Assembly (NCBI GenBank): GCA_951812955.1
Contig: OX638340.1
Span: 1,120,001-1,184,000, forward strand
Reading direction: 5' to 3'
From: an uncultured Gemmatimonadota bacterium
GTDB taxonomy: Bacteria > JAAXHH01
DNA: 64,000 bases
Part shown: positions 13,326 through 64,000 of the stretch, one piece after another
How positions within the stretch are numbered: the first letter of the stretch is position 1
Layout: every line of letters begins with the position of its first letter
Made by a program: the position numbers and the translations under genes
The notes under the pieces: generated by a model
Told to the model about the DNA's origin: nothing
The model's input: the letters and a program-made list of their open reading frames with translations, nothing else
Databases searched by the model: none

Positions 13326-13353
13326 ATGCGAAGCGGTACCGCGTGGTTATCGT

Positions 13354-13426
<73 letters not shown>

Positions 13427-13478
13427 TTCCCTTTAACATGCCGGGTGTTTCCCGGCGCTAAGCCGGAACGGACGGACC

Positions 13479-43188: not shown

Positions 43189-44526
43189 ATGTCGCGTATC
43201 GAACGTCTGCACACAAATGGTATGGAACCGTATCCCGCCCGGGCCAACAGGTCGCACACGGTGCGGCAGGTCCGGGAATCCGGCGCTGTACTGAGTCAAT
43301 GCGTGATTTCCGGCAGGCTGGTCCAGCTGGATCCGCAGGCCCGGAGCGGCGTGCTGAAAGACTGGACGGGCACGGTCGACCTCGCCCTGGACGAACCGGC
43401 CCTCACCCACGTCCTTCCAGTGCTTTCCAAGGGCGACCTCGTGGAATGTGCAGGTACGTGGAAGAACGGCGTACATACCGTTTCCGCACTGAGGCTCCTG
43501 GCGCCCTGCCTGCGTGAAGCGCCTGAACCGGCAGCGGCCGATGCCGTGCGCATCCGGGAGCGTCTCATGGCCGGAACCCGTTCCTTCTTCGAGTCTCGCG
43601 GTTTTGTCGCCGTAGACACCCCCGCCTTCATGACAGTACCGGACCTGACACCGGCGCTGCGTTCCTTTCGAACGGAATACGTGGACGGCGAAGGCGGAGC
43701 CCGTCCTTTCTATCTGCAGACTTCGCCCGAACATTACATGAAACGCCTACTGGCGGCTGGATGCGAACGGATCTATCAGATTTGCCGGTTTTACCGAAAC
43801 GGGGAACGTTTCGACACCCACCATCCCGAATTCACCGGTTTGGAGTGGTACGAGGCCTATGCAGATTACAATACGGTCATGGACACCACCGAGGACTACG
43901 TGACTTCACTGGCCGAGATGCTCGGTCACTCCGGCAAACTGACCTACCAGGGGACCGAGATCGACCTCCACACCCCCTGGCCGCGATACCGGTTGCGGGA
44001 CATCTTCCTGGACAGGACGGGTATCGATCTGGATGATTGCGATTCGGTGGACGCCTTCGCTTCCATGGCCCGAAGCAGGAAGTTCGAGGTGCGGGGCGAC
44101 GATGACTGGGACGACCTATTCCATCGCGTCTTTCTTTCGGCGGTGGAACCTGCCCTGCCCGCCGGCAGGCCGGTCTTTCTGACGGAATATCCCGCCCGGT
44201 TGCCGTCGCTTGCGCGGTGCGTTCCCGGCAACGCCAGGTACGTGGAACGCTTTGAACTCTACATGGGCGGACTGGAACTGGCCAATGCCTTCACGGAGTT
44301 GAACGATCCGGAGGAACAACGTGCCAGATTCGAGGCTGACCTGGAGATTAAGCGATCCCGGGATGGGCGGGAACGTTACGACGGCAACGTGGACGAGGCG
44401 CTGTTGGCGGCCCTCGAATACGGAATACCCCCGTCGGGCGGTATCGCCTTGGGGTTGGACCGCCTGGCCATGCTTTTTGCCGACGCGCGCACAATCGATC
44501 CCGTGATCATGTTCAGGGATTACTGA
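43189..44526 (+). CDS. Class-II aminoacyl-tRNA-synthetase paralog: EpmA/GenX-like core with a LysRS-like N-terminal OB domain
   Basis: Core TSPEHYMKRLLAAGCERIYQICRFYRNGE...HHPEFTGLEWY and ERFELYMGGLELANAFTELNDPEEQRARF...GIALGLDRL. The N-terminal roughly 120 aa have a PYP motif and an OB-like segment. Confidence 0.7.
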   Translation: MSRIERLHTNGMEPYPARANRSHTVRQVRESGAVLSQCVISGRLVQLDPQARSGVLKDWTGTVDLALDEPALTHVLPVLSKGDLVECAGTWKNGVHTVSALRLLAPCLREAPEPAAADAVRIRERLMAGTRSFFESRGFVAVDTPAFMTVPDLTPALRSFRTEYVDGEGGARPFYLQTSPEHYMKRLLAAGCERIYQICRFYRNGERFDTHHPEFTGLEWYEAYADYNTVMDTTEDYVTSLAEMLGHSGKLTYQGTEIDLHTPWPRYRLRDIFLDRTGIDLDDCDSVDAFASMARSRKFEVRGDDDWDDLFHRVFLSAVEPALPAGRPVFLTEYPARLPSLARCVPGNARYVERFELYMGGLELANAFTELNDPEEQRARFEADLEIKRSRDGRERYDGNVDEALLAALEYGIPPSGGIALGLDRLAMLFADARTIDPVIMFRDY

Positions 44527-45763: not shown

Positions 45764-48700
45764 TCAGCGGCCGGAGCCGTGCAGGCGCATGGCTTCTCTG
45801 AAACCCTCCTGAGAGACCCACCGCGTATTGTAGGTGTCCCGGTATTTCTGATGATCAACACTGTTCGGGTAATGGGCTTCGAGACCGTAAGGGTATCGGT
45901 CCATGCCGCGGAAGGGCAGGGGTTCGATCGTCGCCGCTGTCGCCGTGTTCAGGTCGCCTTCCTTGAGCCACCCATCGGTATGCAGAACGAAGTCCCTTTT
46001 CCAGCCCGGCGGTGGTTCGGGAAGGTCATTCGCTTCGAAGGTCACTGCGATTTCCTCTCCCGAACTGTAGACGACGTAACGGCTGTCCGATTTCCGCAAC
46101 AGGGCCGTGACATCACCGTACCGCGTCCTGTATCCCTCGAACGGCAGCCACTGCGGTTCGGCGCTCAGCGTCTGGTAGTCTCTGACGAAAGGACCGAGGG
46201 GCGCCGTCCGGTATTCCCGTGAGTAGCCGCGGTAGTGAAGATCGGCGGACAACGGTTGCAACCGGGTGATCGTTCTTTCGACCCGTTCCGGCTCGTCCAC
46301 GGTGAAAAAGGCCTCGCTCCAGTACAACTCCAGGTTGGTGGTGAGCCTGACGCGGTAGTCATCGGCGGGGAAATGGCCCGTCAGATCGACGAATATGGTC
46401 TTGTGTTCCCCCGAAGGAAAACCGGTGTATGGAATAACGGTACGCCATTGCCCTGCGCGGTCCGGCGTTTCCAGGTACGGCGGTATCACGGCGGTGTTAT
46501 TTCGCTGGGACAGGGCCAGGTTGGAGCTGGGCTCCACGGGCATGATCCAGCCGCAAAGGTACAGGTGGATCCGTTCGGCCCCGCTCAGATCTCCCAAATC
46601 CAGCGTGATCGAATGCGTCTCGGGAACGCCCTGGAATTCCCCGAGTTCGAAGTCACCCACGTACAGGCTGTCCCGTGCCGCGAGACGGGGCAGGATGTCG
46701 TTTCCATTGTGGTCTCGGGCGGCCAAGGGCGGGCGCGGGTCGGTCACGGTGTGGATCTCCAGTCCCGGATAGGGCGGCGGGAGGTACTTTTCATCTACGT
46801 AGATGTCTGTCTCCGCCGGGTGATCGACGACCAGCAATTCCATTTTATCCATGTACACCGCGTCCCATAACTCTTCTACGACACGGACTTCGAACTTTCC
46901 GTCCCGCTCCCGCAGTTGGTCACCCCGGATCTTCACGTAGTCGTTGGCCGCATCCGGATAGGCCGGTGCGCCGGTTTCCGTCAGGGCGCCGATTGCACTG
47001 CGTGTCATCAAGTGCGTGACGAACTCGTACCGCGCGCCGTTCCAAGTGTACAGCGACGGACAGGAGCCCTTAAGCCGCTGGGGTTCTACGATCAGCATGC
47101 GGGACTCCGGATCGATCCGGTTCTGGGGTACGCCGTTGCTCCAGATGACCCGGATAACGTCCGCCTTTTCGCGGCTGCCGAGACCTGCGTGGGAAATGGG
47201 CCCGTCGACCAGCAATGCCTGATAATGTGCGCCGGCGTTGACTTCGATGGTGGATCCAATGCCGTAGAAATTGTTCTTCCCGCTTCCTTCCAACGCCGCG
47301 GCGAGCCGTATGTTGAGCCACCCGTTCGCATTGCCGCCGTCATTGCGGAGCGCGATGATCCGGCCTTCGGACAGCAGCACGAGATCGAGATCGCCGTCGC
47401 CGTCCAGGTCGCTCTTTTCTACGGCTTCGACGTTGCCGGGCAGTTCCGGCAACAAGGCCGCCTGTTCCTCGAACCGGCCGTTCCCCAGGTTTCTGACCAG
47501 CCGGAGTCCGGAGCGTTCCGGGACCGACGTCCCGGCAAGGACCAGGTCGATGAACCCGTCGTTGTCGAAGTCGACAGGCCGAACAACGGCGGGATCAAGG
47601 CCTTCGCAGGCTCCGCCCAGTATCGCGGGTGTGTCCTGCCCGGCGAACCGTACGCCGCCTTCATTCCAGAACAACCTGCATCCATCGATTCCGGATCCCG
47701 CCATGAACAGATCCAGCGCGCCGTCGTTGTTGAAATCGGCGGCCGCGACCATATGCGCCTTGCCCCACCCGATGTCGCCGAACCGGTCCGTCCAGTCCAA
47801 CCACCTGCCCTGCCGTACGTTTCGGTAGAGCCGGTGCGATTCATCTTCAAACAGCGCGACCACGTCCACGGCTCCGTCCCGGTCGAAGTCTCCCCAGGCG
47901 AGCGCCTGACCGGCCGAAGGGAGAAAATCGCCTTCTGCCGCCCCGGCGGGAACGCCGCCTGCCGCCTCTTCGAAACCCGTGGAGGCCGTGGCTTCTTCAA
48001 ACAGTCCGTCCTCCGTATGACGGTAGAACCGGAGCGTCCTCATGTCGGACACCAGGATGTCCAGGTCGCCGTCGTGGTCGAAATCCACTCGCGCAACGGA
48101 TACCGGTGAAGTCGATCCGGTCCATTCAAAGGACTGCGCGAGGACGTAGGTTCCGTCTCCTGCATTATGAAACACCCGCGACTGCCCCGATCCGGCGGCG
48201 AACAGGTCGGCGTCGCCGTCGTTGTCGAAGTCGCCCGTTGCCAGCCTGAAGTCGCCCGTTGCCGGCCCGATATCCGCATCCTCCCCTCCCCTGGCCCAGG
48301 GGATCGAAACCGATTCCCAACCTTCTACTCGGTTGCGCAGCACGACCAGCGCACCTGTACCCGCCAGCACCAGATCCGGGCGGCCGTCCCCGTCCACGTC
48401 CGGCAGCGCCAGGTCTGTCCACGTCCCCGGCGCTTGAAGCGATGCCCCGATCAACGCGTCACCCGCGTCCACGAACCGCATGTCGACGAGGGAGTCCGCG
48501 TCCATGACGGCGAGGCCGGGCGGTGCCGAACGGAAATTGTAGAGCGGTGGCGACTGCTGCGTTGGATCTCCCAGTCGATCCCGAGACCGGCGGTAGGACG
48601 GATCCACGACGAGCAGGTTGCCCAGGATCCCCGCGTTGAATTCGGCTTCGTCAGCGTCCCTACGTTTCAGCGCGTCAAGTGTCCTGTCGAGCCAGGTCCG

Positions 48701-49330
48701 TACATCGTCCGAAAGGGGGACGAGCAACGAGGCCATCCGATCATACCCTTCGACGGCCTCGACGATCCTGCCCATACGGACCAGGGTCTGGTTCAGCTCG
48801 ACGAGTAAGGCCAGGTTGTCCGGTTCGTACGCGAGCATCGCCCGCAACTCGTCCAGTGCATCTTCATCCCGGTGGGCCGGTCCCCGCTGCCTTCTCATTT
48901 CAGTTAGATACTTGTACCTGAGCACCACGTTGGACTCGTTGTGTCCGACCGCGTGCGCAAGCATGTCAAGGGCGCGTTCGCGGTCTCCCCTCGCAGCCGC
49001 GATATCGGACCGGATGGAAAGGACTTCCCCATCCTGCGGGGCGAGATCCGAGGCCCGGTCTATGGCCGCTTCGGCGTTCTCTAAATCCTGCAGTTTCAGC
49101 AGCGCAATGGCCATGTTCGCGTGACCGAGGGGTTCTCGGGGCACCAGCCGGACCAGCGTCTGGAAGGAACCTGCCGCGCCTTCCGGATCATTCCGGTAAA
49201 GATAGGCCAGGCCGGTGTTCTTCTCGGACAGGGCTTCCACCCATACGTCGCGGGAAGGGGATGTATCACCGCATCCCGCGAGCAGGAAAGCGGCCAGTGA
49301 GAACCCGAAAATGGCGGTTGATGTCCGCAT
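45764..49330 (-). CDS. Large lipoprotein with N-terminal TPR, FG-GAP/VCBS repeats and an ASPIC/UnbV domain (CRTAC1-like)
   Basis: ATG at 49330 (GAGGGA SD) gives MRTSTAIFGFSLAAFLLAGCG. Repeated D.D.DGD.D units (GDFDNDGDADLF, VDFDHDGDLDIL, ADFNNDGALDLF, DLDGDGDLDLV). ASPIC-like IGSTIEVNAGAHYQ...VIRVIWSNG. Confidence 0.8.
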   Translation of the reverse strand: MRTSTAIFGFSLAAFLLAGCGDTSPSRDVWVEALSEKNTGLAYLYRNDPEGAAGSFQTLVRLVPREPLGHANMAIALLKLQDLENAEAAIDRASDLAPQDGEVLSIRSDIAAARGDRERALDMLAHAVGHNESNVVLRYKYLTEMRRQRGPAHRDEDALDELRAMLAYEPDNLALLVELNQTLVRMGRIVEAVEGYDRMASLLVPLSDDVRTWLDRTLDALKRRDADEAEFNAGILGNLLVVDPSYRRSRDRLGDPTQQSPPLYNFRSAPPGLAVMDADSLVDMRFVDAGDALIGASLQAPGTWTDLALPDVDGDGRPDLVLAGTGALVVLRNRVEGWESVSIPWARGGEDADIGPATGDFRLATGDFDNDGDADLFAAGSGQSRVFHNAGDGTYVLAQSFEWTGSTSPVSVARVDFDHDGDLDILVSDMRTLRFYRHTEDGLFEEATASTGFEEAAGGVPAGAAEGDFLPSAGQALAWGDFDRDGAVDVVALFEDESHRLYRNVRQGRWLDWTDRFGDIGWGKAHMVAAADFNNDGALDLFMAGSGIDGCRLFWNEGGVRFAGQDTPAILGGACEGLDPAVVRPVDFDNDGFIDLVLAGTSVPERSGLRLVRNLGNGRFEEQAALLPELPGNVEAVEKSDLDGDGDLDLVLLSEGRIIALRNDGGNANGWLNIRLAAALEGSGKNNFYGIGSTIEVNAGAHYQALLVDGPISHAGLGSREKADVIRVIWSNGVPQNRIDPESRMLIVEPQRLKGSCPSLYTWNGARYEFVTHLMTRSAIGALTETGAPAYPDAANDYVKIRGDQLRERDGKFEVRVVEELWDAVYMDKMELLVVDHPAETDIYVDEKYLPPPYPGLEIHTVTDPRPPLAARDHNGNDILPRLAARDSLYVGDFELGEFQGVPETHSITLDLGDLSGAERIHLYLCGWIMPVEPSSNLALSQRNNTAVIPPYLETPDRAGQWRTVIPYTGFPSGEHKTIFVDLTGHFPADDYRVRLTTNLELYWSEAFFTVDEPERVERTITRLQPLSADLHYRGYSREYRTAPLGPFVRDYQTLSAEPQWLPFEGYRTRYGDVTALLRKSDSRYVVYSSGEEIAVTFEANDLPEPPPGWKRDFVLHTDGWLKEGDLNTATAATIEPLPFRGMDRYPYGLEAHYPNSVDHQKYRDTYNTRWVSQEGFREAMRLHGSGR

Positions 49331-49355: not shown

Positions 49356-50102
49356 TCAAAACCGGTTGATGACCATCAGTTCGCTGCCGCCGCCACGCGC
49401 CACGCGCTTCACGGCTATGGCGATCCTGTTTTCCCTGTCAAGGGCGTTCCAGTACGTCCCCATGACCTCTTCCGCTCCGCCTCGCAAGGGCATGACCAGG
49501 GGATCGCCCGTAAACCCCGGCAACGGATCGCCGTCGCCCATGTAGGTCGTCAGGCACAGTCCCAGTCCTGCCGGAGGTGGCGTCGGAGCGTAGGTCGCGC
49601 GGTCGGTGTGGGCGGGATCGACGGGATTTGCTCTGAGCACGCTCAAGGAAACGGCGGGCGTCCCGGTCAGGTCCAGCATGCCGCTGATACGGGGCGTGTA
49701 GTTCGGCGCGTCCGGCTCCCGTTCCCTCGTGGCCAGGGCGGCGTCGAAGGTGCCGCCCCTGGTCAATGCATCTCGGATCGTCAGAGACTGGTCGCCGTTG
49801 GCGACGATATAAAGACCCGGCAGCTCGAGCATGGCCGGATAGATGATCAGATCGGGATTGTCCAGCCTGGATGGATCGGCCGGCATGGTCCGAAGTTCGG
49901 CCCCGTCGACGATGAACCGACGGTTACGGCTGCGCTCGCTCCGGCCCATGATCCAGTAGACTACGAGCCAGGCATCGTCTTCGGCCGTACGGCCGATGAT
50001 CAGGCCCCGCCCAGGGTAGCGGTTACCGTCGATATGCCGAGAAAAGTTCTGATCCGGGCTCAGCCTGGCGTGCATGGGGCGTTCGTTAACCGGTCCTGTC
50101 AT
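49356..50102 (-). CDS. PurO-like protein (archaeal-type IMP cyclohydrolase family fold)
   Basis: YPGRGLIIGR...VYWIMGRSERSRNRRF...IVANGDQS...EPDAPNYTPRISG matches my recollection of the PurO pattern (YLGRI.AVG...YRVSSRSFPNR...SNG.HT...NTPRIA). The ATG overlaps the stop of the ATPase gene (ATGA). Confidence 0.6.
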   Translation of the reverse strand: MTGPVNERPMHARLSPDQNFSRHIDGNRYPGRGLIIGRTAEDDAWLVVYWIMGRSERSRNRRFIVDGAELRTMPADPSRLDNPDLIIYPAMLELPGLYIVANGDQSLTIRDALTRGGTFDAALATREREPDAPNYTPRISGMLDLTGTPAVSLSVLRANPVDPAHTDRATYAPTPPPAGLGLCLTTYMGDGDPLPGFTGDPLVMPLRGGAEEVMGTYWNALDRENRIAIAVKRVARGGGSELMVINRF

Positions 50103-51253
50103 TTGAAAAGGCTCAATTGATCGGGGCTGATGTCGAGGGTTCTCTCCGAAGGTGCCCGGTCCGGTGCGATATCGCGTTCCAGGAGCAACAAGGCGTCCCT
50201 CACGTCTTCAGCCATCTCCGCATCCGAACCTTCGTGGACGGGTTTCAACAGCAGGACTTCCTCCCGTTCGATACCGGGGTCGGATAGCAGGGCCGCGCTG
50301 TGCGTGCTGATCAACACCTGCCTGCCGGCGTTCCGCTGCATGCGGAGAATCAATACGGCGAGTCGGTTGACGATGCCCGAATGGAGACAGAGCTCGGGTT
50401 CCTCCAGCAACAGCAGTGAATCCCCTTCGAGGAGTGCCCACAACATGCCGATAAGGCGCAGCGTTCCGTCGGAAAACTGGTCTTCCCGCTGTATACCCGC
50501 CCGAGGCCGCCAGTGGGCGTATAGCGCCTGGAGATGGGGACGTCCGGTCTCCCGGTCTCGTACGAATTCGAGTTGTTCGAGCCGAGGCACGGCCAACTTG
50601 AGCACCTCCTCGATCCGGGACAGGCGGGCCTTGCGGGTCCGGTCATGCTCCCGTGCGATTCTGTCCAGGAAATCCTGGCCGTATGGATCGCCTTCGAGTG
50701 TTTGACCACCGATCAGATCCGTGTGGCGTAGAAGCGACGGTACCAGGTGATGGTAGGTGATGGCTTGAAAGAACCGGGCTATGTCCCGGAAATCACGGTT
50801 GGCGGTGATCTGTTCGAGGTAGGTCTGGGTAAGCCGCACGATGTCTTCCCGGTCGTCCTCGTTCGGCCTTTCGAGAATGACGGCCTCGTCCCTGATCACC
50901 CGTTCGAGCGTGATCAGCGTATGCCGGTTCCCCCGGGCCTGCTGCTTGAGCCCGAGTTCGTAGCGCCAGGTCTCATGCCCGTCTGCCGGATCGGAAAATC
51001 GGACCTCGATGGCGATATCGGGATCCCTGCGCGCGGCGAGATTCCGGATCTTGGTCATTCCGCCCCGGTCCGCGACCGCCTTCTGCAGTCCGCCGCCCTC
51101 GATCTTGGCGATATCCCGGAGGAACCGGAATACGTCCATCAGGTTGGACTTCCCGGACGCGTTGGGTCCGACGACGAACTGTCTTTCTCTCAGATCGGCG
51201 TCGATCCGCGGGAAATTTCGCCAGTTTCTGACTTTAATGTGACTCACGTACAT
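50099..51253 (-). CDS. ABC/SMC-type AAA ATPase (AAA_15/AAA_21-like)
   Basis: ATG at 51253 with GGAG 6 nt upstream. MYVSHIKVRNWRNF..., Walker A GPNASGKSN, signature-like FSDGTLR, Walker B LLLLEEPE, H-loop LISTHS. Confidence 0.8.
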   Translation of the reverse strand: MYVSHIKVRNWRNFPRIDADLRERQFVVGPNASGKSNLMDVFRFLRDIAKIEGGGLQKAVADRGGMTKIRNLAARRDPDIAIEVRFSDPADGHETWRYELGLKQQARGNRHTLITLERVIRDEAVILERPNEDDREDIVRLTQTYLEQITANRDFRDIARFFQAITYHHLVPSLLRHTDLIGGQTLEGDPYGQDFLDRIAREHDRTRKARLSRIEEVLKLAVPRLEQLEFVRDRETGRPHLQALYAHWRPRAGIQREDQFSDGTLRLIGMLWALLEGDSLLLLEEPELCLHSGIVNRLAVLILRMQRNAGRQVLISTHSAALLSDPGIEREEVLLLKPVHEGSDAEMAEDVRDALLLLERDIAPDRAPSERTLDISPDQLSLFK

Positions 51254-51277: not shown

Positions 51278-52468
51278 TTAGTCGAAGAATCCCTGGTCGT
51301 CCTCCTTCAGGTAGGGCAGCGTCTTGTCCGGTACCAGGTCGACCCCCAGGCCGGGTCTGTCCCACACATCGATGTAACCGTCCTTCACGATCGGGTCCGG
51401 CAGGCCCTCCACGATGTCGTACCACCAGGCGGGGTTGCCGACGGGATATTCGAAGGCGATGTAGTTGGGCGGCATGGCGGCCGATGCGTGCACCAGCGCC
51501 GCCAGGCCGATCAGGCCGTCGATGACGCCGTGGGGCGCCATTAGCACGCCGTGGAGATCAGCGTATTCGGCGATCCACTTGAGCTCGGCGATCCCGCCCA
51601 CGTCGGCGGGATCGGGACCCACCACGTCCACGGCGCGTTTCTCGATGAGGTCGACGAAGTTTTCCCTGAGATAGATCTGTTCCCCCGTGTGGATGGGCGT
51701 GGACGTCTTCGAATTCACCTCCCGGTACAGGTCGGCCAGGACATAGGGCGTATAGTCTCCGGTGATCATGTCTTCCAGCCACATTATATGCAGATGTTCC
51801 ACGGCTTTTGCGAGGCGCATGGCGTCTGGAACAAGCATGCCCGGCCCGCAATCGAGCGCCAGTCCCACTTCGTCGCCGAGGACCGCTTTCATAGCCTCGA
51901 TGCAGGCCACCAGGTGCTTCAGGCCCTTTTCGGTGAGCGGGCCGCGATTGCCGTGAAATCCGTGACGCTGCAGGTCGCCGTAGAAGAAGTCGGGGACCTG
52001 GGACGGCATCTGGCTATGGAAACTGATGCCCTGTTTGATGATGGTGAATCCTTCAGGCGCCGCCTTCATCCTGGCCATGTCCTCGGCGTAGTCATCCACG
52101 GTTGATCCCTTCATGGGAAACCGTACGGCCCCGTTGTAGACCCGGACCCGGTCCCGCATCTTGCCGCCGAGCAACTTGTACACCGGCAGGCCCGCCGCCT
52201 TGCCGGCGATGTCCCACAGGGCCATCTCGATTGCGCTTACCGAGCTGCCCCACGGCTTGAAACTGCCCAGCCGTCGTATACTCGCGATGACTCTGTTTAC
52301 GTCCGTGGGATCCTGGCCGATGATGAAATCCCGATAGAAGAGGACATGGGGTTTCAGGTAGTGCTTGGAGTTCTCTATCTGTCCAAGCCCGTGGATCCCC
52401 TCGTCCGTGGTGATCCGTACCACGGGGTTCTGGCCGATCACGGCGCATTTCAGGTCGGTGATTCTCAT
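51278..52468 (-). CDS. Enolase-superfamily enzyme (mannonate/galactonate dehydratase-like subgroup)
   Basis: ATG at 52468 (MRITDLKCAVIG...). IEMALWDIAGKAAGLPVYKLLGGKMRDRVRVY, LALDCGPG, MWLEDM, IHTGEQ. Confidence 0.85.
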   Translation of the reverse strand: MRITDLKCAVIGQNPVVRITTDEGIHGLGQIENSKHYLKPHVLFYRDFIIGQDPTDVNRVIASIRRLGSFKPWGSSVSAIEMALWDIAGKAAGLPVYKLLGGKMRDRVRVYNGAVRFPMKGSTVDDYAEDMARMKAAPEGFTIIKQGISFHSQMPSQVPDFFYGDLQRHGFHGNRGPLTEKGLKHLVACIEAMKAVLGDEVGLALDCGPGMLVPDAMRLAKAVEHLHIMWLEDMITGDYTPYVLADLYREVNSKTSTPIHTGEQIYLRENFVDLIEKRAVDVVGPDPADVGGIAELKWIAEYADLHGVLMAPHGVIDGLIGLAALVHASAAMPPNYIAFEYPVGNPAWWYDIVEGLPDPIVKDGYIDVWDRPGLGVDLVPDKTLPYLKEDDQGFFD

Positions 52469-53343
52469 GCTGGATTCCCTTTCGACTGCAACCGTTTCTC
52501 CCATCCTGCCGGTTTGCCCGCTTCATCCCATGCCTTCATTTCGTCCAACAGGCGTTCAACGACTTTCTTTGGCCCCTGGAATCCTCCCTGGCGTTTCATT
52601 TCGCAGACCCCTTCCGACAACTGATCCTCGTATTCCGCTATGGGACCGGCACCGGGTGTCCAGGACGCGTAGGACGTGCAGTACCGCTGGAACATCGTGC
52701 GACGCGGCGGATCGTGCAGGGGCCAGGGGAGCGCGCCGTGACAAAGCGCTTCGGTGAAAATGACGGCGTCCCCGGCGTTGACGGGAACATTGACCACTGC
52801 AGGCGGACCGGAGCGGATGTTAATGTGCTCCGGCCGTTCGAAATAGGTCTTGTGGCTACCCGGTATGCAGACGAATCCGGCCCCGTCGGGAACGTCCACG
52901 AGGGAAATGGCCGCGTTGATGAAGGTGGCGAACACTTCGCCATCCGCCGCCTGGTAATCGTTGGCCGGGTTTCTCCACGCCCCGGAGACACCGTTGTGCA
53001 GCGTGATCTCGTCGCTGTCCGGCAGATTCACGGTGAGTGCGGACAGGAGGTGCTGGGGTCGCTGCCGGGTCAGTGCGAGCACGACGCGCATGATCGGCAG
53101 GTTAAGGACCAACCGGTCGAAAACCGGGTCGGCGTACTCGGCGTGGAGAATGGCCCGCGCGGCCGTCGATTTTTTCCTGGGATCCTCATAGGAACAGAGC
53201 GGCGGCGGCAGTTCGTCTTCGTCCATGCCGTGCCACGCGTCGCACCGGGCGATCATGTGTTCCAGATCCTCCTGGGGAACAACCCGGCGGAGAACCAGGT
53301 AACCATGCAAGTCGAACAGCCACTTTTCTTTGTCTGTGAGCAT
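52465..53343 (-). CDS. PhyH-family Fe(II)/2OG oxygenase homolog with an H-x-G variant of the iron-binding motif
   Basis: GYLVLRRVV start, ITLHNG at the position where the family has H-x-D/E, VDVPDGAGFVCIPGSHK, and distal VIFTEALCHGALP. Its stop overlaps the start of the enolase gene (ATGA). Confidence 0.75.
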   Translation of the reverse strand: MLTDKEKWLFDLHGYLVLRRVVPQEDLEHMIARCDAWHGMDEDELPPPLCSYEDPRKKSTAARAILHAEYADPVFDRLVLNLPIMRVVLALTRQRPQHLLSALTVNLPDSDEITLHNGVSGAWRNPANDYQAADGEVFATFINAAISLVDVPDGAGFVCIPGSHKTYFERPEHINIRSGPPAVVNVPVNAGDAVIFTEALCHGALPWPLHDPPRRTMFQRYCTSYASWTPGAGPIAEYEDQLSEGVCEMKRQGGFQGPKKVVERLLDEMKAWDEAGKPAGWEKRLQSKGNPA

Positions 53344-58091: not shown

Positions 58092-59147
58092 ATGAATCGT
58101 GTTCTAGTCGTGCATGCGCTGTCGTTGGTGATCGGTTGTGCGGGTGACCAGGGACCGATTGGCCCCGGGGGGGAACAAGGTCCATAGAGCCTTCAATGTT
58201 CAGAGGGACCGGTAGGGCCGCAGGGCACGCGGGGCGAGCAAGGGCCGCAGGGAATAGCCGGGCCGACCGACCCACAGGGCTCACAGGGTCCACAGGGGAC
58301 TGGCGCGCCGCTGAATTGGGCAGACGTGATCGAGGAGGGGAACCTCTACGACGCGGTCTATGTGGTCGGTGTCTAGACTGAGAGTTACTGGACCATTATC
58401 GGCACGGCTTTTGCAGCCTACTACGACGACAAGATGTGGACCAACGCCCACGTCGTAAAGCGTGCTATGGAGGAAGCGCAGAATAAGATTGGCGAAGTGC
58501 GAACATTCGTGGCGCGAGCAGGAGAGCGGTTTGTGGATGAAGGGCAAGGTCCGGGATTTATCTACTGGAACGGCGCTATCATCCACGAAGACTATGATGC
58601 TGAGCAGTATCCCCATGACAGCCCCGACGTCGCCCTGCTCCGCCTGGAGGAGAATGTTACTGGACCACTGCCCGAGCTCTTGCCGCGTGAATTCAGCCAG
58701 GACCTGCGCATAGGCCAGCCGCAGGGAATATTGGGATATCCAGGCGGGCTGGGACATTAAACCCTCGAGCTCGTATTGCTGACGTTCAAAGAAGGCACGC
58801 TGTCTGCGCTGCGGCCCTTCCTGAACGAGAGCTTTGACGGAACCAATACGGGGATGTTGCTGCACTACAATTTCCTTACAGAAGGCGGGACACGCGGGAG
58901 CCCCGTCTTCGATCACAACGGTTACATCGTAGGCATCAATTTCGCCGGTCTTGATAAAGAAATCGAGTTCGGAGAGGAACTCGTCACGATTGAAACGTCG
59001 CACCAATTCGGCATACACGTGGAGGCTCTTTGGCAAATGATCGACCAGGTTGGCGGAGCGCCGGCCGTCGCCGCGCGCGTTACGGTACCGGAAGGATCTT
59101 ACGAGCCATTTCCGGCCGGCTGGATTGGTGAGACTATCGCGCCCTAG
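58092..59147 (+). pseudogene. Decayed gene: lipoprotein signal, collagen-like stalk and trypsin-like serine protease domain
   Basis: A single reading frame from ATG 58092 is interrupted by in-frame TAG (58185), TAG (58374) and TAA (58758). MNRVLVVHALSLVIGCAGDQGPIGPGGEQGP*...[20 protein letters not shown]...; protease motifs WTNAHVV (His), DVALLRL (Asp), and GGTRGSPVF where GGxSGSPVF is expected (catalytic Ser to Arg). Confidence 0.7.
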
Positions 59148-59210: not shown

Positions 59211-59762
59211 ATGAGATCCGTCCTATTTATCGTTGCCATGCTGGTTTTCACAGCCTGCGAGGGCAAGGTAGGACCGGCTGGACCGGCTGGACCGGCTGGA
59301 TCAGCCGGTCCACAGGGTGTAAAGGGCGATACCGGGTCGCTGGGACCGAAGGGTGACAGTGGTGATCCTGGACCGGCAGGGCCGGCAGGGCCGGCAGGAC
59401 CGCAGGGGCCGGCAGGACCGCAGGGGCCGACAGGGCCGGCAGGACCGGAAGGCGGTGGTACCACGGAGCCGCCACCACCACCGCCGGAGCCGCCACCACC
59501 ACCGCCGCCACCGCCGCCACCGCCGCCACCGCCGGCCGGCGACGGAGCCTGCGTAGCCGGGTTGGTCGTGAATCCGGGTGAGAGTTGCGTTTACAATGGC
59601 TACGACTTTTCCGTTAGTTCCGAAGGCAGAGGGCGCATTGCCTTTTTCTCCGCGGGAAGCGGTATAGATGCAAGGGGTACCACGATCAACGGCGTACTTT
59701 GGAACTTCCATGCAACCCGAAACAGTGGCAGTAGCAGTTGGACCATTCATTCTGCTGATTGA
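59211..59762 (+). CDS. Lipoprotein with a collagen-like stalk, poly-proline linker and small Cys-containing C-terminal domain
   Basis: [16 protein letters not shown] lipobox, then about 21 G-X-Y triplets, [27 protein letters not shown], and a roughly 70-aa C-terminal domain with 2 Cys. Confidence 0.75.
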
Positions 59763-61388: not shown

Positions 61389-64000
61389 ATGCCCTTGATT
61401 TACATTCGTGCCATACCCGTGTTCATATGTCTTGTATTGTTCACTCTGACCACCTGCGGCAAGGACAGCCCCACCAGACCGAAGCCGCCAGATCCACCGC
61501 CGCCAGTAGTGCCCGTAGCCACCCGCATTGACATCACTCCGCCTTCTGCCACGTTGAACTCGGTTGGCCAGACTATTCAACTCAACGCAAGAGTCCTGGA
61601 TCAGAACAACGCGCCAATTAGTGGCGCAGCCGTGACATGGACCAGCAGCGACAACGGCGTGGCTACCGTCACCGTCCAGGGGTTGGTAACTGCGGTAAAG
61701 AACGGCACGGCACGGATCACAGCCCGATCAGGTAATATCTCTGCAAATGCGAATGTCACTGTGTTACAGACAGCCGGTAGTATCGTTATCGAATCGGCTA
61801 TGACGACGCTAACAGCCATCGGTCAGACCGTCCAGCTGACGGCGAATGTACTGGATCGTAATGACAAGCCGGTAGCCGGTGCTGTCGTGACCTGGACGAG
61901 CAGCGATGCGTCCGTAGCAACGGTCAACGAACAGGGGTTGGTGACGGCCGTCAAGAGTGGCGGCACACGGATCACGGCACGGTCAGGCAGCGCCTCAGCA
62001 GGCATCACTGTTACGGTAATGCAGTCGGTAGCAAGTATCGTGATAGAGCCTGAGATGGCGACGCTCATGTCGATCGGCGAGACCGTGCAACTCACCGCCA
62101 CCGTTCTAGATCAGAACCGGCAACCAGTAGATGATGCCGTCGTCACCTGGCAGAGCAGCGATGAGGAAGTGGCCACCGTAAGCGCTGCAGGACTCGTTAC
62201 CGCCATCGGCAACGGCATGGCAACTGTCACCGCCAGATCAGGCAACGCCTCGCAGACGGCAACCTTGACTGTGACGATCCTTGATACACGACGCGACCGA
62301 GAAGCCCTTGCCGCACTGTATCATAGTACGGATGGACCGAATTGGACCAACAACACGAACTGGCTGAGCGATGCGCCTCTAGACTCATGGCATGGCATAG
62401 GAACTACCACACTTGGAGAGGTTCAGTATCTGAATTTGGGGGAGAACAATCTCCACGGCATCATCCCACCTGAAATAGGCAAACTTCAAAAACTGACAGT
62501 ACTGGCGCTCTACGGCAATAGTTTGACCGGCAACATCCCGCCCGAAATCGGACAGTTACAGAACCTGACAGATCTTAATCTCGGCGACAACGAGTTGAGC
62601 GGCCCTATCCCCACTGAAATAGGGCAACTTCAAAAACTGACAGGTCTTACTCTCGCCGGCAACCAGTTGAGCGGTCCAATCCCCCCTAATATAGTGCAAT
62701 TGCTGGAACTAAAATTCCTGTGGCTCGGCGGCAACCAGTTGAGCGGTCCTATCCCCACTGAAATAGGGCAACTTCAAAAACTGACAACTCTATGGCTAGG
62801 CGCTAATCAACTGACCGGCAACATCCCGCCCGAAATCGGACAGTTGCGAAACCTTACTGACCTAAATCTTGATTTTAACCAGTTGTCTGGATCCATACCC
62901 CCCTTAATCGGACAACTACAGCATCTGAAATTCCTGCGGCTGAATGGCAACCAGTTGACTGGATCCATTCCGCCCGAAATCGGACAGCTTAGCATGCTTA
63001 GGTTCTTGAACATGGCCTTCAATCCCAATCTTTCGGGGCCATTACCGGTAACAATCACCTCTCTTTCCAACATGGAATCCCTGAGTTTGCACTACACTCA
63101 AGTATGTATTCCTCCTACCGCCCAATTCCAGTCATGGTTAGACGGGATAGAAAACATAAGAGGCGATATTTCTAGCTGTCCAGGGCCAGAGGGACCAGTG
63201 GAACCGGAAGAACCGGAAGAACCGGAAATGCCGCCTCCTGTCGGAGAGCGTCTGGACGTGAGGATTGTTTATTTTGTTCCTGCAAATCATACTGGATACC
63301 CGAACATAGATGCCAAGATAGATTCGTTGGTCAACATCGTCAAATTGACTTATGCGGAGATATTTGAATTTCATGGCTTCGGCGATAGAACCTTTCAGCA
63401 CGAGCAAAATGCGGATGGCACGGCCAGGGTATATCATGTGAAGGGCCAATACGATGGCGAATACTATTCCAGCGAAACATTTTTTAAGGTTATACATACC
63501 GAATTGGAACAGATATTCGATTTAGAATCGAATATTTACTGGGTCGTATTGGATGCTATCGATGCAACTGTAGATGGTTATTGCGGGCAAGGGTATGGTG
63601 ATCTTCCTGAGGGCGGCGCGTTTTTAATACCCGGACCAAACGACTACTGGTTGGAGGATCGCGGGTGGAGTTGTTTCAACCCATCAGTTGCATCCCACGA
63701 AATCGGACATTCCTTTGGTCTAACCCATGACCTGCTCAGAGACGAAGTGCGTGTCGAGTCCTCATATCAAGATGACTGGATGATTACTTCGTATTGTGCC
63801 GCCGAATGGATGTCGGTACATCCATTCTTCACCGGCGAACCAACCACGGGGAATGACAATGAGGGTGAAATAAGTCTAAGGTCGATTTCTGATGCTTCAT
63901 CCGAGACTATCCGCCTGGTTTTCGATGTGAGCGACCCCGATATGCTGCACCAGGCTCAACTTCTTGATAGAAACGGAGAAACGATAGCCTACCGTGGATT
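61389..64000 (+). CDS. Large lipoprotein with 3 Big_2 Ig-like domains, about 9 plant-specific-type LRRs and a metzincin (HExxHxxGxxHD) protease domain; 3' end beyond the window
   Basis: Not in the ORF track (open at the window edge). Hand translation from ATG 61389 shows no stop to 64000. MPLIYIRAIPVFICLVLFTLTTCGKD lipobox; three repeats of ...SIGQTVQLTA.VLD.N...V....VTW.SSD..VATV...GLVTA...G.A.ITARSG; LRRNT-like DREALAALYHSTDGPNWTNNTNWLSDAPLDSWHG; 24-aa LRRs L..L.L..N.LSGPIP.EIGQLQ.L; HEIGHSFGLTHD. Confidence 0.85.
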   Translation, partial: MPLIYIRAIPVFICLVLFTLTTCGKDSPTRPKPPDPPPPVVPVATRIDITPPSATLNSVGQTIQLNARVLDQNNAPISGAAVTWTSSDNGVATVTVQGLVTAVKNGTARITARSGNISANANVTVLQTAGSIVIESAMTTLTAIGQTVQLTANVLDRNDKPVAGAVVTWTSSDASVATVNEQGLVTAVKSGGTRITARSGSASAGITVTVMQSVASIVIEPEMATLMSIGETVQLTATVLDQNRQPVDDAVVTWQSSDEEVATVSAAGLVTAIGNGMATVTARSGNASQTATLTVTILDTRRDREALAALYHSTDGPNWTNNTNWLSDAPLDSWHGIGTTTLGEVQYLNLGENNLHGIIPPEIGKLQKLTVLALYGNSLTGNIPPEIGQLQNLTDLNLGDNELSGPIPTEIGQLQKLTGLTLAGNQLSGPIPPNIVQLLELKFLWLGGNQLSGPIPTEIGQLQKLTTLWLGANQLTGNIPPEIGQLRNLTDLNLDFNQLSGSIPPLIGQLQHLKFLRLNGNQLTGSIPPEIGQLSMLRFLNMAFNPNLSGPLPVTITSLSNMESLSLHYTQVCIPPTAQFQSWLDGIENIRGDISSCPGPEGPVEPEEPEEPEMPPPVGERLDVRIVYFVPANHTGYPNIDAKIDSLVNIVKLTYAEIFEFHGFGDRTFQHEQNADGTARVYHVKGQYDGEYYSSETFFKVIHTELEQIFDLESNIYWVVLDAIDATVDGYCGQGYGDLPEGGAFLIPGPNDYWLEDRGWSCFNPSVASHEIGHSFGLTHDLLRDEVRVESSYQDDWMITSYCAAEWMSVHPFFTGEPTTGNDNEGEISLRSISDASSETIRLVFDVSDPDMLHQAQLLDRNGETIAYRG

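Follow-up and report, generated by a model that had tools for sequence, protein, structure and literature searches.

Two adjacent genes on the minus strand of a 64,000-nucleotide (nt) stretch of DNA from an uncultured Gemmatimonadota bacterium (assembly GCA_951812955.1, contig OX638340.1, positions 1,120,001 to 1,184,000) are the subject of this analysis. The whole stretch is called the window in the following. The upstream gene of the pair encodes an ABC/SMC-type ATPase, the downstream gene a homolog of the inosine monophosphate (IMP) cyclohydrolase PurO. A first-pass annotation had regarded them as a candidate for an undescribed two-gene system, in which a purine-directed enzyme replaces the nuclease of an ATPase-nuclease defense module. 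Both open reading frames (ORFs) and the motifs named there were read directly in the sequence and are arranged as follows:

50099..51253, minus strand: HEC-01A-orthologous ABC/SMC-type ATPase, 384 amino acids (aa); Pfam AAA_21/AAA_15, PADLOC PDLC04180; no Toprim partner here
51143..51169, minus strand: Walker A motif (P-loop) GPNASGKSN, residues 29-37; G29, N31, A32, G34, K35, S36 and N37 invariant in alignment A1
50456..50476, minus strand: ABC signature-like motif FSDGTLR, residues 260-266; S261 to R266 invariant in A1
50393..50416, minus strand: Walker B and D-loop region LLLLEEPE, residues 280-287; L281 and L283-E287 invariant in A1
50297..50308, minus strand: H-loop STHS, residues 316-319; S316, T317 and H318 invariant in A1
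50099..50102, minus strand: ATGA stop/start overlap, with the ATPase stop TGA at 50099-50101 and the ATG at 50100-50102
50073..50075, minus strand: alternative start Met10 of the PurO-like gene, which aligns with the start Met of most PurO-like members; conserved ATG at the junctions of related loci
49356..50102, minus strand: PurO-type IMP cyclohydrolase homolog with 248 aa (start at the overlapping ATG) or 239 aa (start at Met10); PF07826

The ATPase matched the Pfam profiles AAA_21 (3.7e-35, 122.9 bits at a cut-off of 27) and AAA_15 (2.5e-14, 54.1 bits at a cut-off of 32.1), in agreement with the architecture assigned to it in the first-pass annotation. With the PADLOC model PDLC04180 it gave 479.8 bits (1.6e-144) over residues 1-373 of 384 and is, judged by its sequence, an orthologue of the PADLOC candidate HEC-01A. 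HEC-01 (Hma-embedded candidate 01) pairs an ABC ATPase with a TOPRIM protein and, when tested in E. coli, did not protect against the phages tried (Payne et al., bioRxiv 10.1101/2024.01.29.577857). The domain DUF4276 is a nuclease domain of the Toprim superfamily, and pairs of AAA15/21 ATPases with DUF4276 proteins constitute a branch of the OLD/PARIS-like systems (PMC12065111, PMC11464382). By the HEC-01A match, the earlier proposal that the ATPase derives from a family of two-gene defense candidates composed of an ATPase and a nuclease was borne out. The gene begins with the ATG at 51253, which is the start common to all homologs of 384 aa. Nearly all homologs have exactly this length; they share about 61% identity and originate from Binatia, Myxococcota, Poribacteria, Cyanobacteria, Bacteroidota, Planctomycetota and others. 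An AlphaFold2 (AF2) model calculated from an alignment of 16 sequences reached a pLDDT value (predicted local distance difference test) of 48 and was too poor to confirm the fold.

For a census on the ATPase side, species-representative genomes were scanned with the ATPase alignment. Out of the 80 loci obtained, 64 lay outside the lineage of the window (hereafter the clade). In these canonical loci the ATPase gene is followed by a gene for a protein of about 200 aa, the start of which usually overlaps or abuts the ATPase gene. Three examples of this protein matched PADLOC HEC-01B models with values of 1e-56 to 1e-63, the Pfam match to DUF4276 being weak, and by tblastn HEC-01B (DUF4276/Toprim) was detected in 62 of the 64 loci. 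The two loci without it, L039 and L073, were considered as possible carriers of an alternative partner, but both turned out to be degraded copies. For a defense candidate the HEC-01A/HEC-01B module is strikingly uniform (L025-L088), as the length of 384 aa and the identity of about 61% extend over more than 10 phyla. Its HEC-01B proteins exhibit the Toprim-like motifs AVED and (L/A)TDxD. The canonical module was frequent in metagenome-assembled genomes (MAGs) labelled Poribacteria, Entotheonella (both typical sponge-symbiont groups) or Latescibacterota. Within the clade, tblastn with 11 HEC-01B proteins revealed no HEC-01B at E <= 1e-3 in any of 23 loci of 7-13 kb. The best match in the 64-kb window had an E value of 0.013, and the matches there were short and at chance level.

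The downstream protein contains the motifs YPGRGLIIGR, GRSERSRNRRF, ANGDQS and NYTPRISG and matched the Pfam profile PF07826 (IMP_cyclohyd) over positions 1-187 of 192 (8.3e-36, 123.8 bits at a cut-off of 28.1); PADLOC models gave no match to it. Its AF2 model had a pLDDT of 85.9. The best Foldseek matches of this model were PurO structures of Methanothermobacter thermautotrophicus (2ntm_D, 7.6e-12; 2ntk_A, 1.0e-11; 1kuu, 2.9e-11) with template modelling (TM) scores, normalised to the target, of 0.72-0.77; proteasome beta subunits came next. The predicted structure is thus that of the four-layer Ntn-hydrolase-like PurO fold, and profile and structure both uphold the family to which the protein had been allotted at the outset. 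A search of the PDB with the single sequence gave no match. With the family profile 2ntk was found at 2e-4, and the catalytic-half blocks YxGR, RS..NR, NG..T and TPRI were aligned to the M. thermautotrophicus PurO. Alignment A2, which comprises 20 sequences including the window protein, has 77 invariant columns, all of which are kept by the window protein. With the purV-linked PurOs it has 75 positions in common, including the motif residues; for PurO, 14 active-site residues are on record (Kang et al. 2007, as cited in PMC6486802).

Both NCBIfam equivalog models remained below their cut-offs (NF003167, 31 bits with a cut-off of 150; TIGR01922, 26.9 bits with a cut-off of 158), and from sequence comparison the window protein is assigned to a bacterial subfamily distinct from archaeal PurO. 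The bacterial PurO-like family is large and tightly conserved, with more than 8000 matches at 60-65% identity across phyla. Since each clade contig occurs once among the 120 best PurO-like matches, the data weakly suggest that there is one PurO-like copy per clade genome. Bacterial purO homologs have been reported to anticorrelate with purH and to be accompanied by purV in 19 of 22 genomes, in seven of the 22 purO lies apart from pur genes, and the homologs were inferred to be the housekeeping IMP cyclohydrolase (Cruz et al. 2019, PMC6486802). The protein encoded in the window is likewise predicted to be an ordinary housekeeping PurO, and it shows no sign of neofunctionalisation.

An ATPase gene followed by a PurO-like gene was encountered only in the loci L009-L024, whose ATPases are 68-90% identical to that of the window, and in L001-L005, L007, L008, L169 and L170. 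All pair-bearing loci are from MAGs labelled Gemmatimonadota or Latescibacterota. They share one gene order, namely aminotransferase, PhyH, enolase, ATPase, PurO-like, FG-GAP, ADH and a gene resembling class-II aminoacyl-tRNA synthetases (aaRS), an eight-gene stretch that spans about 11.7 kb in the window. The pairing is kept even in the deepest member of the clade, L024, with 68% ATPase identity. Among the 64 loci from other phyla, none contained a PurO-like gene within 6 kb of the ATPase gene. For a census on the PurO side, PurO-like proteins from outside the clade served as seeds of a metagenome scan. It resulted in 80 loci, and in none of them was the ATPase or HEC-01B found beside the PurO-like gene. 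The probe for purH and purV in this part was an E. coli PurH sequence, used in tblastn. In 54 of the 80 loci it disclosed, 20-120 nt downstream of the PurO-like gene, a purV that encodes only the aminoimidazole carboxamide ribotide formyltransferase (AICARFT) and matches only residues ~214-529 of PurH. Because matches of this clean, AICARFT-only and domain-limited kind lie beside PurOs from gut metagenomes, the probe works. In one case, in a genome of 8 Mb, the PurO-like gene is solitary. Hence, in the loci sampled the pairing is not conserved beyond one Gemmatimonadota clade, in which it has a single evolutionary origin. Because this origin lies within a syntenic block, the conserved adjacency is uninformative beyond vertical inheritance.

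The junction of the two genes points in the same direction. The 3′-end of the ATPase gene, coding for ...QL(S/N)LFE and followed by TGA with the overlapping ATG, is the canonical HEC-01A/HEC-01B junction. Since the same junction leads into HEC-01B in 31 of the 64 canonical loci, the ATGA of the window is a legacy of the HEC-01 module and no adaptation to PurO. Ancestrally, the PurO-like gene probably started at the ATG of Met10. In the clade loci L003, L004/L023, L011, L016, L018, L022 and L169, either a stop or frameshift interrupts the frame that the overlapping ATG opens, or the ATPase stop is TAA; in L012 and L024 the overlapping ATG is the only usable start. At the junctions examined the spacing between the two genes ranges from about -4 to +33 nt, so that the tight packing is conserved but not the overlap. 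As the overlap frame is often broken, translational coupling through the 4-bp overlap is no conserved property. Of the coupling postulated in the first-pass annotation, there remains the ATGA in the window itself. The nine codons preceding Met10 were also inspected as a possible 5′ remnant of HEC-01B. Only L024 scored (p = 0.006), the window and the remaining loci gave p values of 0.1-0.5, and for these the vestige was rejected; L024 is a weak lead only.

The reading that we favor, with a probability of roughly 0.72, is that two unrelated genes of known kinds came together on one occasion, in the ancestor of a single Gemmatimonadota lineage, and have no functional partnership. The downstream gene would be the ordinary bacterial PurO of this lineage, an enzyme of the Ntn-hydrolase fold that completes de novo purine synthesis by closing formamidoimidazole carboxamide ribotide (FAICAR) to IMP. 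Its presumed partner is an AICARFT-only PurV, the gene of which would lie at another site of the genome. A mobile HEC-01A/HEC-01B module, or the ATPase gene alone, would long ago have inserted downstream of the enolase-superfamily gene and upstream of purO. Loss of HEC-01B would have followed, leaving the ATGA end of the ATPase gene abutting the purO leader. Since that time the ATPase gene would have passed down by vertical inheritance as part of a long housekeeping operon, closely packed with its neighbors and in the same orientation, and would have been retained under selection for a role that needs no nuclease encoded in cis. Its adjacency to purO would thus mark the site of an insertion and not a partnership.

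Several observations weigh against this reading. The state before the insertion, in which the enolase gene is directly followed by purO, was not found, and for this reason the order of insertion and loss is one that we infer. No non-clade PurO locus shared any flanking gene with the clade. Among enolase homologs from outside the clade, the nearest ones (P0249 and P0250) were tried as representatives of the pre-insertion state and lie in unrelated sugar-acid contexts, and a further candidate, P0244, proved to be another clade member. Moreover, the PurO-like gene sits exactly in the HEC-01B slot, and with the E. coli probe neither purH nor purV was detected in the window or in the fetched clade flanks. 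An orphan ATPase that is kept at a ratio of nonsynonymous to synonymous substitution rates (dN/dS) of 0.145 down to 68% identity demands a function, and the preferred reading supplies none. Finally, the mirror-tree analysis gave a partial Mantel r of 0.48 (p = 0.0002) for the ATPase and the PurO-like protein. We rejected this value as a sign of specific coevolution, because the rate correlation of the ATPase with ADH was equally high (partial r = 0.50).

The selection data were also informative with respect to the fate of the ATPase. In every clade locus examined the gene encodes an uninterrupted protein of 384 aa, and all catalytic motifs are invariant. The dN/dS of 0.145 is the median of pairwise values within the clade at a median dS of about 0.6. 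Neighboring genes yielded values of 0.072-0.257, the highest being that of the PurO-like gene, and the ATPase is more conserved in the clade than the adjacent PurO-like and FG-GAP proteins. The GC content of its gene (0.61) equals that of the surroundings. With its motifs intact and purifying selection acting on it, the ATPase thus probably retains a role that is independent of a cis-encoded nuclease. The sole relaxed region of the ATPase is its C-terminal tail (residues ~361-380) with the fixed change G361D, which the loss of a partner interface would explain. The loss of the effector, and the failure of HEC-01 itself to protect E. coli, would suit a decaying and functionless remnant of a dead defense module, but the intact reading frame, the invariant motifs, the low dN/dS and the stronger conservation relative to the two adjacent genes speak against it. 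The selection data thus come close to refuting pure decay, which we consider extremely improbable.

Only six clade-specific fixed changes, mostly conservative, were noticed at canonically conserved positions of the ATPase. Together with the low dN/dS, this integrity would also be in line with an HEC-01 that still works in trans, with a Toprim partner (HEC-01B/DUF4276) from another part of the genome, PurO being an irrelevant neighbor. Such an arrangement is unlikely, given that 62 of the 64 canonical loci encode the partner in cis, usually by an overlapping gene, that no HEC-01B-like sequence was found in the window or the 23 clade loci, and that the other orphans, L039 and L073, appear to be degraded copies rather than split systems.

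The relaxed C-terminal tail of the ATPase could also reflect an altered partner interface, as expected if the ATPase, after the loss of HEC-01B, had recruited the PurO-like enzyme as its output, for instance to change purine nucleotide chemistry upon infection, and formed with it a lineage-specific two-gene module for defense or stress. This module swap would also fit the position of the PurO-like gene in the exact slot of HEC-01B with a spacing of about -4 to +33 nt, the purifying selection on an ATPase devoid of its nuclease, the adjacency maintained even in L024 and the residual rate correlation of 0.48. Yet, the adjacency does not represent independent evidence, as it goes back to a single origin in a fully syntenic block, and the reciprocal censuses yielded 0 of 64 and 0 of 80 loci. 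The PurO-like protein keeps all family-invariant residues and is apparently the only copy, the overlap is an ancestral trait of HEC-01 that the clade has not conserved, the rate correlation is just as high with ADH, and there is no defense context. Cyclisation of FAICAR to IMP is a biosynthetic step, in which no obvious logic of abortive infection can be seen, and our literature search found no link between IMP cyclohydrolase and anti-phage defense. We therefore judge the module swap to be unlikely, as nothing speaks for it in particular. Of the replacement of the nuclease that had been postulated, the literal part holds, PurO lying in the slot that HEC-01B occupies in 62 of the 64 loci, and the functional part does not. 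A rewired HEC-01A that acts on or through the PurO-like enzyme, be it in a lineage-specific module for defense or stress or by regulating IMP formation in an ATP-gated manner, receives a similarly low rating; what speaks for it is the long-term purifying selection on the ATPase and the exact positional replacement. Such a rewiring, if true, would link the last step of purine synthesis with an ABC-ATPase sensor.

The preferred reading of two genes joined by one insertion agrees with the surroundings of the pair, for which the following operon neighbors were recorded:

51278..52468, minus strand: enolase-superfamily (MR_MLE) enzyme, upstream neighbor, 396 aa; MR_MLE_C 1.9e-41, MR_MLE_N 2.7e-13; no PADLOC match
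45764..49330, minus strand: lipoprotein with TPR and FG-GAP repeats, downstream neighbor; FG-GAP_3 1.1e-45 and TPR families; no PADLOC match

According to Pfam, the same-strand neighbors of the pair are an aminotransferase, a PhyH-family protein, the enolase-superfamily protein and the TPR/FG-GAP lipoprotein, separated by short spacers, which confirmed the metabolic gene string described in the first-pass annotation. The lipoprotein gene is syntenic across all clade loci, and the MR_MLE enzyme stands outside any defense module. The wider surroundings code for a ClC channel, a porin, Sua5/YrdC, threonine aldolase, MutL, a GSDH/NHL protein, the class-II aaRS-like protein, ADH and a hybrid histidine kinase/response regulator (Pfam). 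None of 10 neighboring proteins had a PADLOC match at a threshold of 1e-5. Because of this, and because the surrounding genes are housekeeping genes, the locus is a housekeeping and metabolic setting and no defense island. A scan for promoters and terminators between the operon genes revealed nothing beyond the expectation from shuffled sequences.

Some further features of the window were noticed. The PhyH-family gene, which is located upstream of the enolase-superfamily gene, overlaps it by 4 bp. The two genes span 51278-53343 on the minus strand and showed the highest residual rate correlation of the block (r = 0.62). They probably form a functional pair of a dioxygenase and an enolase-superfamily enzyme. 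Homologs of the latter with 396 aa are 75-78% identical across distant phyla. Adjoining the operon, a class-II tRNA-synthetase-like protein of 445 aa is encoded at 43189-44526 on the plus strand, in which only the tRNA-synt_2 core is present. By size and domain content it could be an EpmA/PoxA-type paralog of LysRS and no true synthetase. The sole Rfam/ARAGORN match in the whole 64 kb was a tRNA-Trp (CCA) at 13353-13427 on the plus strand. Between 57000 and 64000 the GC content drops to 0.47-0.57, compared to 0.60-0.64 upstream, and long ORFs are scarce; this part may be a variable or foreign region. It contains an ORF of 251 aa without a Pfam match (58281-59036) and an ORF with collagen-triple-helix repeats (59211-59762). 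A long ORF on the plus strand (~61900-64000), which continues past the end of the window, has Big_2-like Ig repeats, plant-type leucine-rich repeats of 24 aa (tandem repeat of 72 nt at 62465-62869; 'LSGPIPTEIGQLQKLT') and, at its C-terminus, the zincin motif HEIGHSFGLTHD. It is a eukaryote-like repeat protein of a kind common in sponge symbionts.

A purine enzyme swapped as effector into an ATPase-nuclease defense module would have been a new class of immune output, but the evidence points away from such a module. On present evidence the pairing is no new system, as each of the two genes is of a known kind. The undescribed functional two-gene system suggested in the first place thus shrinks to a pairing confined to one syntenic lineage, with a PurO-like protein that is an orthodox member of its family. 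The locus may serve as a cautionary case for the discovery of defense systems through guilt by adjacency, in that one insertion in a syntenic block can bring about both a conserved pairing and an overlap of 4 bp. Furthermore, the long retention of the ATPase without its nuclease hints at nuclease-independent roles or at a domestication of HEC-01A-type ATPases.

Compared to known systems, the window ATPase belongs to the same AAA_15/AAA_21 ABC superfamily as the ATPases of PARIS, MADS, OLD and Gabija, but it has neither an adjacent Toprim gene nor a fused Toprim domain. Its match to the PARIS protein AriA (PDLC02980), whose partner AriB is a DUF4435-Toprim protein, was only 1.5e-32, as opposed to 1.6e-144 for HEC-01A. 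In MADS, where the ATPase Mad3 is paired with the DUF4276 protein Mad4, the mad3 model gave 2.5e-19 and the NCBIfam model MAD3 69.6 at a cut-off of 420. The GajA and Old models gave about 1e-14, and the profile matches to GajA, OLD and AriA in the PDB were at the level of motifs only. With HEC-01 the window ATPase shares the full-length match to HEC-01A, the 384 aa and the motifs of the family, and the 3′-end ...QLxLFE-ATGA. It differs in that HEC-01B is not detectable in the window and the clade loci, and in that its gene lies away from defense genes and is not mobile but vertically inherited in a housekeeping operon. The PurO-like protein resembles archaeal PurO (MTH1020; 2NTK/2NTL/2NTM/1KUU) in PF07826, in its predicted fold and in the blocks YxGR, RS..NR, NG..T and TPRI, whereas it is only ~20% identical to it, is about 40 aa longer and falls below the equivalog cut-off. 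Although its gene and the relatives with 52-65% identity (L089-L100) are not located beside pur genes, the likeness to the bacterial purO/purV route (Cruz et al. 2019, PMC6486802) is evident from homologs with 39-43% identity to the window protein, whose genes lie directly upstream of purV.

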